DNA from: a virus
Lineage: Duplodnaviria > Heunggongvirae > Uroviricota > Caudoviricetes
Virus record (IMG/VR): IMGVR_UViG_2675903433_000022
Strand: one strand, 5' to 3'
Length of the DNA: 64,000 nucleotides
In this document: positions 8,181 to 18,612 of the stretch, in pieces
How the letters are laid out: the number at the start of each line of letters is the position of its first letter
Numbering within the stretch: the stretch's first letter is position 1
The notes under the pieces: model-generated
Told to the model about the DNA's origin: nothing
What the model saw: the letters and a program-made list of their open reading frames with translations, nothing else
Databases searched by the model: none
Made by a program: the position numbers and the translations under genes

Positions 8181-8337
8181 CCCGTCTCCTTTATTTTAAT
8201 TTGCGCAATTGTCGCCTTGTAGTGTACTCCAGCTACGGCATTTAATCATTTATGAGAAATGCTGTTATCACATGGCAGACATAAGGCCATTTTGTTACTA
8301 TCAAGCCCCTTTTCACTACAAAGAAGTAATGCCTACT

Positions 8338-10371
8338 ATGACCCAAGTCGCGAAGAAAATTCTGGTGACGTGCGCGCTGCCGTACGCTAACGGCTCAATC
8401 CACCTCGGCCATATGCTGGAGCACATCCAGGCTGATGTCTGGGTTCGTTACCAGCGAATGCGCGGCCACGAGGTTAATTTCATCTGTGCCGACGATGCCC
8501 ACGGTACGCCGATCATGCTGAAAGCACAGCAGCTTGGTATCACACCGGAGCAGATGATTGGCGAAATGAGTCAGGAACACCAGACTGATTTCGCAGGCTT
8601 TAACATCAGCTATGACAACTATCACTCGACGCACAGCGAAGAGAACCGTCAGTTGTCTGAGCTTATCTATACTCGCCTGAAAGAGAACGGTTTTATTAAA
8701 AATCGTACCATCTCTCAGCTGTACGACCCGGAAAAAGGCATGTTCCTGCCGGACCGTTTTGTAAAAGGCACCTGCCCTAAATGTAAAGCGCCAGATCAAT
8801 ACGGCGATAACTGTGAAGTCTGCGGCGCGACTTACAGCCCGACTGAACTGATCGAGCCGAAATCGGTAGTTTCTGGTGCTACGCCGGTAATGCGTGATTC
8901 CGAACACTTCTTCTTTGATCTGCCTTCTTTCAGCGAAATGTTGCAGGCATGGACCCGCAGCGGTGCGTTGCAGGAGCAGGTGGCAAACAAAATGCAGGAG
9001 TGGTTTGAATCTGGCCTGCAACAGTGGGATATCTCCCGTGACGCACCTTACTTCGGTTTTGAAATTCCGAACGCGCCGGGCAAATATTTCTACGTCTGGC
9101 TGGACGCGCCGATTGGCTACATGGGTTCCTTCAAGAATCTGTGCGACAAGCGCGGTGATACCACCAGCTTCGATGAATACTGGAAGAAAGACTCCACCGC
9201 CGAGCTGTACCACTTCATCGGTAAAGATATTGTTTACTTCCACAGCCTGTTCTGGCCTGCCATGCTGGAAGGCAGCAACTTCCGCAAGCCGACCAACCTG
9301 TTTGTTCATGGCTATGTGACGGTGAACGGCGCAAAGATGTCCAAGTCTCGCGGCACCTTTATTAAAGCCAGCACCTGGCTGAATCATTTTGACGCTGACA
9401 GCCTGCGTTACTACTACACTGCGAAACTCTCTTCGCGCATTGATGATATCGATCTCAACCTGGAGGATTTCGTTCAGCGCGTGAATGCCGATATCGTGAA
9501 CAAAGTGGTTAACCTGGCCTCCCGTAATGCAGGCTTTATCAACAAGCGTTTTGACGGCGTGCTGGCAAGCGAACTGGCTGACCCGCAACTGTACAAAACC
9601 TTTACTGATGCCGCTGAAGTGATTGGTGAAGCATGGGAAAGCCGCGAATTTGGTAAAGCGATTCGTGAAATCATGGCGCTGGCTGATCTGGCTAACCGCT
9701 ATGTCGATGAACAGGCTCCGTGGGTGGTGGCGAAGCAGGAAGGACGCGATGCCGATCTGCAGGCGATTTGCTCTATGGGCATTAACCTGTTCCGCGTGCT
9801 GATGACGTACCTGAAACCGGTACTGCCGAAACTGACTGAACGTGCAGAAGCATTCCTGAATACAGAACTGACCTGGGATGGTATCCAGCAACCGCTGCTG
9901 GGCCATAAAGTGAATCCGTTCAAGGCACTGTATAACCGTATCGATATGAAACAGGTGGAAGCACTGGTGGAAGCATCCAAAGAAGAAGTGAAAGCCACAG
10001 CTGCACCGGTAACTGGCCCACTGGCTGACGACCCGATTCAGGAAACCATCACCTTTGACGACTTCGCCAAAGTTGACCTGCGTGTGGCGCTGATTGAAAA
10101 CGCGGAGTTTGTCGAAGGTTCTGACAAACTGCTTCGCCTGACGCTGGATCTCGGTGGTGAAAAGCGTAATGTCTTCTCAGGCATCCGTTCCGCTTATCCA
10201 GATCCACAGGCACTGATTGGTCGTCACACCATTATGGTGGCTAACCTGGCTCCGCGTAAAATGCGCTTCGGTATCTCTGAAGGCATGGTGATGGCTGCTG
10301 GCCCCGGCGGGAAAGATATCTTCCTGTTAAGCCCGGATGCTGGTGCTAAACCTGGCCACCAGGTTAAGTAA
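8338..10371 (+). CDS. metG: Methionyl-tRNA synthetase
   Basis: 677 aa from [29 protein letters not shown] (HIGH motif), KMSKS present, C-terminal tRNA-binding domain; track ORF 8209 is an upstream in-frame extension. Confidence 0.95.
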
Positions 10372-11055: not shown

Positions 11056-11159
11056 CCAAACCGTTGATAATGGCGGTCACAATTTGATTCTTTTCTATAA
11101 GAATCCGTTGATCGCCACTACTCCCCTTCCATACCTGCAATCATATCCTTAAATATCAA

Positions 11160-11950
11160 TAGGTTATAGTTGTTTGCACAAACAAGAAAACAACTGAATA
11201 ACAGATCAACGAAACGTCAACGCTTTCTCCCGATTTGGTCTAAAAAATTGACGTTTTCACACATCACTTCTTATACCCGTAATTCTACGCAGCAGATAGC
11301 GCCACAGCGTTCAATTTTCACCACAGACGACTCAACACACTACCAACAAAAACACACGCTCAAAATCGCTCCCGTTGCGTTACACAACCATATAAACAAC
11401 TTATTTTCAGGTATAACAAAACAACTAAATAACACATACGCCATTACCAAAAACAACCAACCTCTTTATGGCAGGCTACCGAAAAGACCCACCTCTTCTT
11501 CCCAGGCTACCGGACAGCCAACCTAACTTTCACAGGCAATCCGAAAACATTCATACGCGCGATACCCACGACACGCCATTACCCAAACATCGAAGAAACA
11601 CCAGAATCACTGAAACCCCAACGAAGTCTGTAACCGCAAGGCTTCTCTCAATCCCAAAAGACACGAAACATAACAATCACGGGAAACGCCATTACCCAAT
11701 ACACGAATAACTACAAAAGCCCTTCACACACTCCAGACAAACAACTCAAACACAATAACGAAAGGAATAGCCCACCTGCCATTACTCCATATACGGAGAA
11801 GAACAATAACCATAACGACGAGAACACCCCATAGAAGAACCACCGCAAAACGAACGAAACCACATACACCGACAGAGAAAACAACACACCCAATCCACCA
11901 ACAGAAATAGTCGCCCTATAGAACGTTCTGGTAGGAGTGAGCATTAACGC
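11160..11950 (+). other. ORF-poor, strongly C+A-rich (G-depleted on plus strand) tract; possible non-coding RNA or origin-proximal region
   Basis: No ORF with an RBS; plus-strand composition skew visible by eye; terminator hairpin at 12035-12058. Confidence 0.3.
11457..11557. repeat. Three tandem ~30-bp direct repeats (CAGGCTACCGAAAAGACCCACCT-type), family 1
   Basis: Units read at 11472, 11503, 11533; related set at 14618-14705. Confidence 0.5.
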
Positions 11951-12034
11951 CTATAGAGAGGTTGAGACAGATAAAACACGAAGAAAACACAACATGTATA
12001 GCGAAGAAGCCAGGTATGTATAAGTGGGGAGGGA

Positions 12035-15263: not shown

Positions 15264-15285
15264 GGGCCAGAAACGGCCCTTTCTC
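15264..15285 (+). terminator. Rho-independent terminator
   Basis: gggccagaaacggccc hairpin plus T-rich tail; the hairpin itself contains the GAAACGGCC core. Confidence 0.55.
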
Positions 15286-15303
15286 TATAGCCACCAGCTG
15301 CCG

Positions 15304-15385
15304 CAGGGAAATTTTCAGAAACGGCGAGGAACGCATTCATGAGCCGACGGGAAACGGCCAGGATTTTTTCGGGAAACGGCTGCAT
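15304..15385. repeat. Tandem GGGAAACGGC-core repeats, family 2 (second locus)
   Basis: Cores at 15306, 15319, 15350, 15372. Confidence 0.45.
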
Positions 15386-15870
15386 TCGCCTTTGTGTAGA
15401 AAAAAACATCGGGAAGCTGGTGGAATCCAACCAGCGGTTGTCGGACAGGTGAGCGGGGAAAATTATGATGACTTTCGTCGCCTGAGACATCCAGATTTCT
15501 TTCGTAGCGTAATCACATACGTGATTAAGTGGTGTGATTATGTGAAAAATCACGCGCACATAATACGCGAGCGGATACGGAACAAAACAAAATGCCGATC
15601 CGCGCCGACAATTAAACGCGGACACATAGCAAGAATAAAAGCCAATGATTAACCATACACCATAACGCAATATAACGCGATTTAAGCGCGTTAATGCGCT
15701 AAGTAATGGGTATGTACTGGTAAGGATATAAAAGCGCGTCTATGGCGTTATTTTGGCGCTTATTTTTATGTTGTTGGCTTGAGTCAAAGACAATAAAAAA
15801 AGCGCCATCATTGGCGCGTTATGGTGGAAGTATTGGAAACGAAAAAAGCGCCCATAGTGGGCGCTCGATT

Positions 15871-16101
15871 TTATTTGTGTAAACTGATTTTAAATCCCAT
15901 TTCTACAAACGCTTTTAACATTAAAAATATATCAGCGTCGTTCACGTCTGCTTTTTTTCGCTCCTGGTCGCTCAATAAGTCAATTTTGCGCGTCGTTTCA
16001 TCTATAAGCTCGACTGCGCGCCCAGCGTAACCAGCGATCCCAGCGATGCGATTAACATAATATTCATTATGGACGTTAACGCCAGCGATAAGAACAAACA
16101 T
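15871..16101 (-). CDS. Hypothetical small protein in AT-rich island
   Basis: 76 aa; RBS ttaaggagcttaatc before ATG on minus strand. Confidence 0.5.
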   Translation of the reverse strand: MFVLIAGVNVHNEYYVNRIAGIAGYAGRAVELIDETTRKIDLLSDQERKKADVNDADIFLMLKAFVEMGFKISLHK

Positions 16102-16120
16102 GATTAAGCTCCTTAAAAAA

Positions 16121-16324
16121 TTAAATAGAATTTTGAAGTTTTCCGATTAATGCGCTTAAACGTAAGTATTCACGTTTACGCTTGCAATCTCGCTTGTTGT
16201 TAAGCAAATCAGAAAACGTAAAATTTAATTGGTCGCGTTGCGCGATCAAATCATCGATTAATTCCAGTTTATAAGCGCGATACTTTGCGCGATATTCCGC
16301 GCGGATCTTGTCATAGCTGACCAT
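16121..16324 (-). CDS. Hypothetical small basic protein in AT-rich island
   Basis: 67 aa from MVSYDK; RBS aaaggag 8 nt upstream; track ORF extends to 16369. Confidence 0.45.
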   Translation of the reverse strand: MVSYDKIRAEYRAKYRAYKLELIDDLIAQRDQLNFTFSDLLNNKRDCKRKREYLRLSALIGKLQNSI

Positions 16325-16372
16325 CTTTAAAGCTCCTTTAAAGCGCCCACTATGGGCGCTTGATTCCATTAA

Positions 16373-17023
16373 TTACGCTTTGAAAGCATCAGCTAAATAA
16401 TTGTAGAAATCATTTTTAATGAAGCGATATTGCTGAGTACCAGCTTTCGCACTCCCAGCTCCTTTGACTTTTTCAACAAGTCCAAGACGTTCGCAAAGAT
16501 TGATCAACTGGTTGGCTTGAGTATAGCCAGCGTCCAATTTAATTTCACACGCTTTTTTAGCTTCATTCATTAAATCGAAAACAGCGCCATTGGTGAACGT
16601 GTCGATCTCGTCGTTAATCATATCGATTAAAGCGAATACACGAGATCCAGACATATCAGCGATGGAATAAACGCATTTACCAGATTTAATTGATTTAACC
16701 AGATAAACCAGTTTTTCCAGAGAATAACTATTAGTCATTGCATCACGGAAAAATACTTCTGGCGCTTGTTTGCTTGCTTTAATCGCATAGTAGAAAACAG
16801 AGCATAATTTTTCGTCTTCAACAGCGTTTACAACGTTGTTGATGAAGTAAGCAAGTTTAGTGGTCGCAGCTTGCATATTTGCTTTGTCTGCTTTAGTGTG
16901 CGTACCATTTTTATAATGTTCGTTATATGTTTGAGTTGCCAGATCTGCTTTTTCGCGCAGTTCATCGGATACAATGGAAGCAGCTTCAATGATGGATTTT
17001 TTAGAAATGATAATGTTAGCCAT
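16373..17023 (-). CDS. Hypothetical protein in AT-rich island
   Basis: 216 aa; RBS aaggaaaaattatc; locally low GC. Confidence 0.6.
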   Translation of the reverse strand: MANIIISKKSIIEAASIVSDELREKADLATQTYNEHYKNGTHTKADKANMQAATTKLAYFINNVVNAVEDEKLCSVFYYAIKASKQAPEVFFRDAMTNSYSLEKLVYLVKSIKSGKCVYSIADMSGSRVFALIDMINDEIDTFTNGAVFDLMNEAKKACEIKLDAGYTQANQLINLCERLGLVEKVKGAGSAKAGTQQYRFIKNDFYNYLADAFKA

Positions 17024-17306
17024 GATAATTTTTCCTTATGTAAATTTAAAATTTATTGTCGTTAGCGTCTTCGCTTTCGACGAGTTCAATTATCGATACA
17101 CGAAAAAAGATTGCAAGTGTTTTTTTAAAATTTTTTGCAGGGATGAAAGTCCTAGAAATAAAAGCGAGATCGTCGAAGGTGTTCCCTAAATAAATAATCG
17201 ATTCCGACTTTCGACCTTATATATATTTAGATTATTTGATTTATAGATATAAAGAAGTGATGTGAAAAATAATAACCGGACTTAGCCGGTTATTAACCTT
17301 ATAGAT

Positions 17307-17615
17307 TTATTGAACAGACTCTACAGCCTTACGATTGGTGTCAAATAGCGCATCAACGAACTGTGCCGATGACTCGCTAGATTCGCAATCCAACATTGCC
17401 CGTTCTTCATTTGCCACTTTCTTACACAGTTCCACATTCTCACCTATCGCTTTTCCTGCTTTTACGGCTGCCGAAAATTGATACATGCAAACTGATACAT
17501 TCTGAGACGTTGAGCACACGTCATTCATCAGCGACTGAATGACAGGCTTATAGTCCATTGCATTTGCCGCAACTGAGCAAAGTAAAAATAATGGTGGTAA
17601 CAATATCGATTTCAT
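17307..17615 (-). CDS. Small secreted (signal-peptide) protein
   Basis: N-terminus MKSILLPPLFLLCSVAANA resembles a Sec signal peptide; several Cys in the mature part. Confidence 0.55.
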   Translation of the reverse strand: MKSILLPPLFLLCSVAANAMDYKPVIQSLMNDVCSTSQNVSVCMYQFSAAVKAGKAIGENVELCKKVANEERAMLDCESSESSAQFVDALFDTNRKAVESVQ

Positions 17616-17618
17616 AAC

Positions 17619-18143
17619 TCAAAAAGGCAAAATTCGCTCAACCCAATCGAACAAAACAACTATTTTTCTACCGTTCTCGACACGTAGTGTAACCTGACAA
17701 GCATCTGCGCCTGCTGACACTCCCTCAATTTCACGGCCATCCGCCATGTACACCCTTATAGATTTGTTTGCTTTGTAGGCTTGGTTGCAAATTGCAAAAA
17801 AATCGCGGCGTGATGGCCGATTATCGACATAATCAGGGTGAACTGTTAGTCGACCTTTGAAATCGTGAGCGATACTGTCAACCACACCTGATTCAATTGT
17901 ACTAATGCGTTCAAGTGGGAGCCTTATACGATTTTCTTTATCAAAAGGGGCTGGGCAAAGGTCAACTTTGTTACGAGATGGCATGAGGCCATAAACGTAC
18001 ATGCAAAACGCCTGGCCATCTTCGAGAGTGACCCTTACAGGAATTTGTTCTCTGCGCCAGAACATCAGTAGTTTTTCAACGTTAGTGTAATCTCGCGGCC
18101 AGAGTTCAGCTTGGATACCGTAGGTAATATCTTTGGTTGTCAT
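17619..18143 (-). CDS. Hypothetical protein
   Basis: Start MTTKD directly after the upstream stop; track ORF to 18221 overlaps the upstream gene. Confidence 0.5.
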   Translation of the reverse strand: MTTKDITYGIQAELWPRDYTNVEKLLMFWRREQIPVRVTLEDGQAFCMYVYGLMPSRNKVDLCPAPFDKENRIRLPLERISTIESGVVDSIAHDFKGRLTVHPDYVDNRPSRRDFFAICNQAYKANKSIRVYMADGREIEGVSAGADACQVTLRVENGRKIVVLFDWVERILPF

Positions 18144-18147
18144 GTCA

Positions 18148-18612
18148 TCACAGAGTTGTTGGCAGAATGTCGATGTCACCAGAATTGCTGGTGAACACCC
18201 TGAACGCTTTTGTGTCTCCATTCTTCAGAGTCGTTTCTCGCTCTTGACGAGCGGGGTTTAGAGCACATAAACCTGCACCTTCAAGAGATGCACCCACAAT
18301 TAATTCTCCGGCATTTAAATGGAAAGTCGCTTTTTCGCCTGTAGCCAGTTTTGCGACAGTTTCGCCGTTGATGAAAATGGAAGCATCACATCCAGCTCCT
18401 ACAAAACCTGTGTCTCTCATTACCACCAACGTAGCTGGCGCTGCGCTTTGATACTTGAACACTTTGGCCTGCGGTGCTGGTTTGGCGTCATGGATTGATA
18501 TTGGGCGTGATTGGCACGCGGTAAGCATCAACACTGGTAACGTTAGTAGAGGGAGAAGCGAGTATTTCATGATAGTTTTAGAACAGAAAGTGAACAGTAT
18601 GGGAGACTTCAT
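18148..18612 (-). CDS. Putative lipoprotein
   Basis: Signal peptide with lipobox LTAC (…LPLLTLPVLMLTAC); RBS agggagacaaag before the first ATG; a shorter start at MKYSLL is possible. Confidence 0.6.
   Translation of the reverse strand: MKSPILFTFCSKTIMKYSLLPLLTLPVLMLTACQSRPISIHDAKPAPQAKVFKYQSAAPATLVVMRDTGFVGAGCDASIFINGETVAKLATGEKATFHLNAGELIVGASLEGAGLCALNPARQERETTLKNGDTKAFRVFTSNSGDIDILPTTL

Follow-up and report, generated by a model that had tools for sequence, protein, structure and literature searches.

A probable core-gene operon of SSU5-type phage-plasmids with a small-gene slot bounded by apparent copies of its own terminator hairpin

What is a distinctly AT-rich block of three minus-strand genes, two of them small and bracketed by a pair of mutually reverse-complementary hairpins, doing in a stretch of viral DNA? 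The question is raised by positions 15660-17300 of the IMG/VR record IMGVR_UViG_2675903433_000022 (Caudoviricetes), of which the whole 64,000-nt stretch that was analysed is referred to as the window. The AT-richness noticed in the original prediction is real: GC content is 37.5% in this segment compared to 46.6% for the window, which places it within the lowest 0.24% of all sliding windows of 1641 nt (mean 46.7%, standard deviation 2.6), the absolute minimum of which begins at 16051. The three genes (216, 67 and 76 amino acids, aa) and their strong ribosome-binding sites were also confirmed (AAGGAGC before both small genes, AAGGA before the 216-aa gene), as were the hairpins, which were located at 15847-15865 and 16342-16360 (compared to 15845 and 16350 as first noted). 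The locus and its 10-kb surroundings share 95-98% DNA identity with E. coli 'phage CMS-2020a', PhiR41_1 and Cyrano, and ~80% with Salmonella phage SSU5 and Klebsiella relatives, and because of these matches the window can be assigned to a phage-plasmid of the SSU5/pHCM2/pMT1 family. SSU5-type phage-plasmids are common in clinical Enterobacteriaceae, and Yersinia pestis pMT1 as well as Salmonella plasmids of SSU5/pHCM2 type also carry the 216-aa gene, all three genes being annotated merely as 'hypothetical'. Following the results below, it is fairly probable that the segment is a conserved operon of SSU5-type elements, silent in lysogens, which combines a core gene with a swap slot bounded by a duplicated terminator hairpin. 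In the direction of transcription, its parts are:

17270-17295, minus strand: intrinsic terminator of the upstream 102-aa gene, TAATAACCGG-CTAAGT-CCGGTTATTA followed by a T-run (terminator scan).
17024-17269, minus strand: putative regulatory leader, with a sigma-70-like promoter behind an A/T tract and with conserved blocks.
17116-17111 (TTGCAA) and 17094-17089 (GATAAT), minus strand: predicted sigma-70-like promoter with a 16-nt spacer (promoter scan).
16373-17023, minus strand: 216-aa core gene, phrog_1513, a family without annotated function.
16342-16360, minus strand: upstream hairpin copy, transcript AGCGCCCA-UAG-UGGGCGCU, its loop flipped relative to the family majority.
16121-16324, minus strand: optional cassette gene A, 67 aa, charged, predicted helical (by eye), phrog_6145.
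15871-16101, minus strand: optional cassette gene B, 76 aa, phrog_1585.
15841-15866, minus strand: downstream hairpin copy, predicted to be the first intrinsic terminator of the operon, 9 pairs (6 G-C), U6, tail TTTTTTCG.
15795-15817, minus strand: predicted second, back-up intrinsic terminator, GCGCCA-AUGA-UGGCGC with U7, 6-bp stem.

The program-made list of open reading frames (ORFs) lengthens the 67-aa ORF to 82 aa by way of an ATG within the hairpin region.

The constant part of this arrangement is the 216-aa gene. It was found, and found to be syntenic, in every SSU5/pHCM2/pMT1-type relative that was examined, with protein identities down to 39-62%, and tblastn recovered it from 12 of 12 SSU5-like phage records as well as from 815 PLSDB plasmids (62 of them from Yersinia, Y. 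pestis pMT included). Of 5426 complete E. coli genomes, 240 (4.4%) carry the locus, on plasmids every time. The protein family is narrow (24 clusters at 50% identity among 1.84 billion representative proteins), with nearly all members coming from Enterobacteriaceae contigs of ~100-115 kb. In annotated relatives the gene order is fixed, i.e. DEAD-box helicase, small ORF, (lipoprotein), FljA-like regulator, 216-aa gene, 0-2 small genes and a convergent 160-aa gene.

The small genes, on the other hand, are patchy: 517 of the 815 plasmids that bear the 216-aa gene hold the 67-aa gene, and 376 hold the 76-aa gene, in 118 of these as a ~51%-identical allele. A second allele of the latter (75 aa, 45-51% identical) replaces or adjoins the 76-aa gene in relatives that include Y. 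pestis pMT1, while a 31%-identical allele of the 67-aa gene occupies the same position in relatives whose 216-aa protein is ~62% identical. From 91 related loci that were retrieved, the stretch from the 216-aa stop codon to the convergent gene (the slot) was tabulated in the 88 that hold both flanking genes. It contains only the 67-aa gene in 27 loci, only the 76-aa gene in 20 and both in 17; the 67-aa gene is joined by the 75-aa allele in 3, the 75-aa allele stands alone in 6, the 31%-identical 67-aa allele (most distant clade) is found in 5, and the slot is empty in 10. Relatives of the 67- and 76-aa proteins were also looked for outside SSU5-type elements, and none were found. The sole chromosomal homologue of the 76-aa protein sits inside an integrated, degraded copy of the same element with its neighbours unchanged, for which reason independent mobility of the cassettes was rejected. 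The two small genes represent just two families, which are restricted to the SSU5-type lineage and to this slot.

What marks the edges of the slot is the hairpin. The sequence AGCGCCCATAGTGGGCGCT occupies 15847-15865 and is matched by its exact reverse complement at 16342-16360, and these are the only two copies of the 19-nt hairpin in the window (0.01 expected), each with a 9-bp GC-rich stem, a 3-nt loop and a folding energy of about -15 kcal/mol. Their flanks are in direct, not inverted, register (AAAGCGCCCA...TGGGCGCTyGATT), which means that only the 3-nt loop is inverted. The downstream copy (-15.6 kcal/mol, z=-3.5) is kept with its TTTTTTCGTTTC tail in all relatives, and the second terminator was found in nearly all of them; both predicted terminators (15841-15866 and 15795-15817) have the GC-rich stem, short loop and U-tract of intrinsic terminators. 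The upstream copy (16342-16360) lacks this combination, its tail UUUAAAGG having only 3 U (the native tails of the two copies being UUUAAAGG vs UUUUUUCG), and in the place of the U-tract it has UUUAAAGGAGC, which is the ribosome-binding site of the 67-aa gene. Across 77 relatives, the 8 nt after the hairpin contain 2-6 T at the first copy and 5-7 at the last. The hairpins are therefore two copies of the operon's own terminator, of which the upstream one is likely a read-through attenuator or 3'-end stabiliser as well as the left boundary of the slot. No known RNA family was detected by Rfam in the window or the locus.

The same layout recurs in the related loci. Empty slots (10 of 88) read TAA, ~13 nt, GCGCCCACTATGGGCGC, TTTTTT, ~30 nt and then GCGCCA-N4-TGGCGC-T6. 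In occupied slots, the hairpin after the stop codon is followed by TTT(T)AAGGAGC... in the place of the T-tract, then by the small ORF(s), a hairpin with the TTTTTTCG tail, and the second terminator. The cleanest example is found in two other IMG/VR records:

~3650-4250 in L028 (UViG_2529293139_000001) and L033 (UViG_3300045988_163895): hairpin-cassette-hairpin-cassette-hairpin array, with the 75-aa and 76-aa alleles in tandem and hairpins before, between and after them (three).

When the window is aligned with L029, in which the 216-aa protein is 99% identical, the two are near-identical up to TTTTAAGGAGCTTAATCATG and again from the hairpin on, with a 45%-identical ORF in between, so that the boundaries of exchange coincide with a conserved regulatory block. 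Breakpoints at the motif of hairpin and ribosome-binding site are seen both in the slot states and in the alignments of the window with L029, L028 and L002.

Upstream, the operon is delimited by the terminator at 17270-17295, which is kept in 11 of 11 aligned relatives. The non-coding leader (17024-17306) has a GC content of 30% and contains the conserved blocks AAATATATAAGG, TTTATTTAGGGAACACCTTCGA (17173-17194) and TTTATTTCTAGGAC, in addition to CGTCGAAAGCGAAGACGCTAACGA in the 5'-untranslated region (5'-UTR). The stretch CTTG...TCGATAAT, several upstream blocks and the 5'-UTR block are invariant in relatives with diverged flanks, and the leader presumably has promoter activity. A 22-mer of the leader, which could have been an operator shared with other sites, has no second copy in the window. 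Between the 216-aa stop codon and the small genes no sigma-70-like site was found in the promoter scan, and the small genes therefore most likely depend on read-through of the disabled hairpin.

A search of the literature on the function or expression of the three genes returned one source, the RNA-seq of E. coli LF82 carrying Cyrano (PMC9928086, S1 Table). The Cyrano 216-aa protein is 97% identical to that of the window, and the Cyrano slot contains only the 76-aa gene. In the LF82 lysogen in lysogeny broth (LB), the homologues CYRAN_113 and CYRAN_112 gave 5.9 and 5.0 normalised reads, compared to a floor of 4.99, a Cyrano median of 9.8, and 18-114 for the flanking CYRAN_111, 114, 115, 117 and 118; both were up only at 6 h in macrophages, with log2(5+FPKM) of ~5.6 and ~4.6, respectively (FPKM, fragments per kilobase per million reads; PMC9928086). 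Since both genes are near the detection floor, the operon is off in the plasmid (i.e. lysogenic) state. This silence fits a lytic-phase unit and counts against functions in exclusion, toxin-antitoxin systems or partition.

The low GC content itself has an explanation that does not involve import. The 216-aa gene has 37.6% GC (0.32 at third codon positions), and yet its fraction of E. coli preferred codons (Fop) is 0.652, the 2nd highest of 79 ORFs. Its codon adaptation index (CAI), with weights from 30 E. coli K-12 genes for ribosomal proteins and elongation factors, is 0.561, the 3rd highest of the 79 (mean 0.37, standard deviation 0.09), in the range of the major head protein (0.703) and, at 0.533 each, the major tail protein and the scaffold. 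The gene favours the optimal codons that end in A or T (GCT, GTT, TCT, GGT, CGT, AAA, GAA). In Salmonella, Yersinia and Klebsiella, where the backbones have 43-50% GC, its homologues still have 38-41% GC and a CAI of 0.49-0.53, and because GC and CAI are kept across hosts, the AT-rich composition is an old, selected property of the gene and not a sign of recent import. The low GC reflects the AT-rich leader, preferred codons ending in A or T and amino acids with AT-rich codons, not a foreign origin. For genome scans this is a caution, as the low GC is here a sign of a regulatory leader and of codon selection for translation instead of foreign DNA.

The product of the 216-aa gene can be described from a structural model. 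Pfam, NCBIfam and PADLOC gave nothing significant for the 216-, 67- or 76-aa protein, in PHROGs all three match only families without a credible function, and Pfam was blank for distant homologues of the 216-aa protein as well. A profile of its family, compared with PDB sequences, matched only a designed helical protein (E=0.47). The confident AlphaFold2 (AF2) model, made from an alignment of 17 sequences, has a mean predicted local distance difference test score (pLDDT) of 82 and a predicted template-modelling score (pTM) of 0.74, and consists of a long N-terminal helical hairpin or bundle (~115 residues) and a C-terminal domain of three helices plus a beta-hairpin. No full-length structural match to it was found. 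The C-terminal part (approximately residues 130-216) is a predicted winged-helix domain, in which the beta-hairpin would be the wing on a three-helix core, as in the winged-helix domains of MarR, PadR, ArsR, TubR and ORC; unlike those proteins, the 216-aa protein has no Pfam or NCBIfam membership and has a novel N-terminal helical domain of ~115 residues. Its best-conserved parts are a central SYSLEK motif and the helix YTQANQLI, which is the putative recognition helix and in which T168, Q169 and Q172 are unchanged down to 31% identity. Based on the predicted fold, the codon bias and the silence in lysogens, the protein is most likely an abundant DNA-binding protein of the lytic programme. The model of the 76-aa protein is of low confidence (pLDDT 68), with elements in the order beta-alpha-beta-beta-alpha-beta.

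Taken together, the segment would be a single transcription unit that is silent in the plasmid state and presumably switched on in lytic development. The sigma-70-type promoter of the AT-rich leader would drive a core gene with the codon usage of the virion proteins that are made in the largest amounts, and the resulting protein of 216 aa, with its helical bundle and winged helix, would most likely bind DNA and be abundant. The operon would end at two tandem intrinsic terminators, the hairpin of the first being duplicated just after the 216-aa stop codon. As this upstream copy has a small gene's ribosome-binding site in the place of its U-tract, it should attenuate transcription rather than stop it, and it may stabilise the 3' end of the upstream message. 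Between the hairpins the slot would accept 0, 1 or 2 promoterless small genes of two lineage-specific families, each cassette unit taking the form T-run, AAGGAGCTTAATC, ATG, ORF, stop, hairpin. Judging from the breakpoints, the block of hairpin and ribosome-binding site would supply the short homology for loss, gain or replacement of a unit, through recombination between co-resident or co-infecting relatives. With the 216-aa gene set apart from the slot, experimenters know that the former is the one to knock out in studies of phage biology and that the small genes are those to examine for strain-specific effects. The locus also provides a clean natural example of terminator duplication marking the boundaries of gene cassettes, together with frequent inversion of a hairpin loop.

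Several points weigh against this interpretation. High codon adaptation predicts that the 216-aa protein is abundant, which is not the same as proving it, and all expression data are low-count lysogen RNA-seq of a relative. The lytic timing is deduced from silence in lysogens, which H-NS, acting on a promoter of 30% GC, could cause just as well as control by a repressor. Furthermore, in the slot of the window type the 67- and 76-aa genes are not separated by a hairpin, which means that some cassette boundaries lack one, and the patchiness of the small genes could stem from repeated deletion out of an ancestral full array instead of from gain. A bolder version, which we hold to be unlikely, is that the hairpin with its ribosome-binding site is a dedicated exchange module (a promoterless counterpart of the PeSL motif of T4-type phages, discussed below) that shuffles early-lytic effectors behind a very highly expressed core gene, the core protein being an abundant phage winged-helix protein of a new kind, which would coat or organise DNA and would recognise the 10-bp phased array downstream of the operon. 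If this were true, the effectors, e.g. anti-defence or host-takeover proteins, would be ones carried by phage-plasmids of the SSU5/pHCM2/pMT1 family.

The principal alternative, and also the suggestion of the original prediction, is that the AT-rich block in its entirety was picked up horizontally and inserted in the phage backbone as accessory cargo, with a role in anti-defence or superinfection exclusion or as a toxin-antitoxin system. It is true that the block is the lowest-GC stretch of the window, that the small genes are variably present, that none of the three proteins has an annotation, and that small variable proteins behind a strong promoter are typical of anti-defence loci. However, the 216-aa gene is core, syntenic, AT-rich in all hosts and highly host-adapted in its codon usage, and a horizontally acquired compositional island was rejected on these grounds: the composition is atypical, but codon adaptation of the main gene is near the top and the gene is universal in the family. 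Conservation of the block as core genes in all relatives, which had been named beforehand as evidence against acquisition, was indeed found for the 216-aa gene, though not for the small genes, which combine a patchy distribution with average codon adaptation (CAI 0.34-0.37; 0.367 for the 67-aa gene). The suggestion holds in so far as the small genes are variably present among close relatives (517 and 376 of 815 plasmids, six slot states among 88 loci), but the idea of a compositionally foreign acquisition was not borne out, and as a reading of the island it is for the most part wrong. In addition, all three families are limited to the SSU5-type lineage and position, with no copies in other phage groups, and PADLOC gave no matches. 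Exclusion and toxin-antitoxin roles in particular fit poorly, given the detection-floor expression of the Cyrano homologues in the lysogen and the independent occurrence of the small genes, which are no obligate pair (67-aa alone in 27 loci, 76-aa alone in 20); a type II toxin-antitoxin pair was rejected for the same reasons and for the lack of any Pfam, NCBIfam or PADLOC family. The small genes may conceivably have an anti-defence role. PHROGs assign them no credible function, and the gene order, with a large, codon-optimised helix-turn-helix gene first, differs from that of acr-aca operons. Altogether, cargo as an explanation for the entire block seems doubtful.

The 67-aa protein is labelled 'MIT family metal ion transporter (CorA)' in SSU5 records (SSU5_119; L001 6123-6326), a label carried into PHROG 6145 under the category 'moron, auxiliary metabolic gene and host takeover'. 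For a protein that is soluble, charged and just 67 residues long this is implausible, and the label looks like a misannotation.

A further alternative is that the 216-aa protein, with its predicted winged helix, serves plasmid maintenance as a TubR/ParR-like centromere-binding adaptor, or is a replication initiator, and acts on an adjacent array of phased repeats:

15662-15760, no strand: 10-bp phased non-coding array, W5-GCGC units around a core.

This array falls within the coordinates of the AT-rich block as first noted and was not mentioned there, and it has no Rfam match. Four W5-GCGC units (15662-15699) precede a near-invariant core (GTAATGGGTATGTAC, 15703-15717), which is followed by three more units (15730-15759). 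Its CG dinucleotides are periodic at 10 bp (the observed score being reached by 0 of 1000 shuffles), and the array is conserved in SSU5-like elements with a varying number of units: 2 in pMT1, 3 in SSU5 and 5.3 tandem CGTTTTAGCG in the Buttiauxella locus L011. A similarly phased stretch can be made out by eye in L088, a distant locus. The array may serve to bind a protein, in the manner of an iteron or centromere. Just past the stop codon of the convergent 160-aa gene, at 15273-15385, lie four GGAAACGGC repeats (GCCGTTTCC on the minus strand), one of which is embedded in the terminator of that gene (GGGCCAGAAACGGCCC); relatives as distant as the L088 clade have kept these repeats. Both sets of repeats could be binding arrays, conceivably for the winged-helix protein. 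A partition function is nevertheless at odds with the silence of the operon in lysogens, and an adaptor or initiator of this kind seems decidedly unlikely.

Whether the silence is a matter of lytic timing at all could be questioned, as the block might instead be an H-NS-bound island under xenogeneic silencing, its genes rarely expressed and its codon signal coincidental. The leader, with 30% GC and phased A/T tracts, would suit H-NS, and so would the modest rise of expression in macrophages, where many H-NS targets also rise. Against this, the protein sequence and the blocks of promoter, 5'-UTR and terminator are strongly conserved, and the high CAI and Fop persist across hosts, which argues for selection for efficient expression and not for a silenced passenger. 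Xenogeneic silencing as the full account is, hence, very improbable, and a conserved lytic operon is still the preferred reading.

The idea that the two hairpins act as inverted repeats around a segment which inverts or recombines site-specifically, and so switches the small genes on and off, can be dismissed as next to untenable: although the 19-mers of the window are perfect inverted repeats, 476 nt apart and on both sides of the small genes, the stem itself is palindromic and only the 3-nt loop differs, the flanks being in direct register, the CTA loop is found in the first copy of 57 of 77 two-copy relatives and in 75 of 87 terminal copies (i.e. they are mostly direct repeats), the 94 cassette genes without exception run in the direction of the 216-aa gene (0 of 94 inverted), and no recombinase gene adjoins the hairpins or the slot. 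An integron cassette was rejected as well: the palindrome is perfect and 17-19 bp long, and there is no integrase nearby (no attC covariance models were run), whereas an integron attC is an imperfect palindrome of 57-141 bp with an adjacent intI integrase and attI/Pc.

How, then, did the reverse-complementary pair arise? The loops of 169 main-hairpin copies were tallied: 136 read CTA, 20 read TAG, and every other variant occurs in 1-3 copies. CTA and TAG are exact reverse complements with no position in common, while the single-step intermediates between the two are limited to 1-3 copies each. The rare loops include further reverse-complement pairs (TTA/TAA, CAA/TTG, TCA/TGA), and the 4-nt loop of the second terminator also occurs in both orientations (TTGT 26 and ACAA 8; ATGA 16 and TCAT 7). 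Several loop states exist inside groups with 216-aa genes that are at least 99% identical, the flipped copy being either the first or the last. Such a pattern is characteristic of a loop that is inverted in concert within a perfect palindrome. The established mechanism for events of this type is intrastrand template switching, and template switching within the hairpin best explains the flipped 3-nt loop. The 'mutually reverse-complementary' pair is accordingly one polymorphic state of what is normally a direct repeat.

Some neighbouring features deserve mention. The upstream neighbours of the operon are also mosaic. The 102-aa secreted-looking protein (17307-17615, phrog_9536) is present in only ~1/4 of related loci, and the gene for an FljA-like 'repressor of phase-1 flagellin' (17619-18221; PF03614, E=2.5e-84, with a weak Hfq-like match) is found in several allelic forms (55-100% identity) next to 216-aa genes that are nearly the same. 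A 720-aa protein (8209-10371, phrog_8598) has the second highest CAI of the window (0.592), and since this exceeds the values of scaffold and tail proteins, it suggests another very abundant uncharacterised product. Lastly, the plus strand of the ~0.9 kb at 11060-11990 is strongly enriched in A+C and poor in G+T (GC skew between -0.33 and -0.37, AT skew as high as +0.52), and this stretch contains no convincing ORF, but three copies of CGCCATTACC(C/A)AA (at 11439, 11574 and 11687); this may be a long non-coding transcript or a region of binding sites.

Of the known systems, the closest parallel is provided by the PeSL cassettes of T4-type phages, which are described as a terminator stem-loop motif repeated around small ORFan genes, with the breakpoints of indels and replacements in the motif (Arbiol et al. 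2010, PMC2839356; Comeau et al. 2014, PMC4122927). Likewise, a stem-loop motif flanks small genes in the SSU5-type operon, and breakpoints between relatives coincide with it. The differences are that the PeSL motif is a stem-loop with an early promoter, whereas the present one is a stem-loop with a T-run and a Shine-Dalgarno block, the cassettes having no predicted promoter and seemingly relying on read-through from the core gene. PeSLs are dispersed in hyperplastic regions, while the present motif is at one locus (in a scan that covered the 64-kb window and not the remaining ~45 kb of the element), and its cassette repertoire is tiny, with two families.

A second parallel is with the morons of temperate phages (a concept of Hendrix and Juhala), i.e. 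extra small genes between conserved genes that have their own promoter and terminator and are typically transcribed in lysogens. The 67- and 76-aa genes resemble these in being variably present between conserved genes, in ending in an intrinsic terminator and in having a GC content below the genome average; the 216-aa gene, being always present, does not share the presence/absence pattern. Unlike morons, the small genes have no promoter of their own in the scan, CYRAN_112 is at the detection floor in the lysogen, and their position is fixed behind one core gene. Hairpins between cistrons are also known to set differential expression within operons as attenuators or stabilisers, examples being the repetitive extragenic palindromic (REP) elements in malEFG and the stem-loops of phage early operons. 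In the same manner, a stem-loop with a weakened U-tract separates an upstream cistron with a CAI of 0.56 from downstream ones with 0.34-0.37; the difference is that the hairpin here can be shown to be a duplicate of the operon's own terminator. As for the loops, template switching is reportedly the basis of Ripley's quasipalindrome model, and hairpin inversions in chloroplasts and template-switch micro-inversions are said to have been described by Kelchner and Wendel (1996) and by Loytynoja and Goldman (2017), respectively. The present case is like template-switch micro-inversions in that the loop is exactly reverse-complemented between perfect stems, recurrently, and far more commonly than the single-step intermediates occur, and differs from other cases of hairpin micro-inversion in being seen in two neighbouring phage terminators, from sequences alone. 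Overall, the arrangement is a modest variation on morons, PeSL-type modular shuffling and attenuator hairpins; it overturns nothing in the current understanding of these systems, and its chief use lies in guiding experimental work on three uncharacterised genes from a family of phage-plasmids that is clinically widespread.

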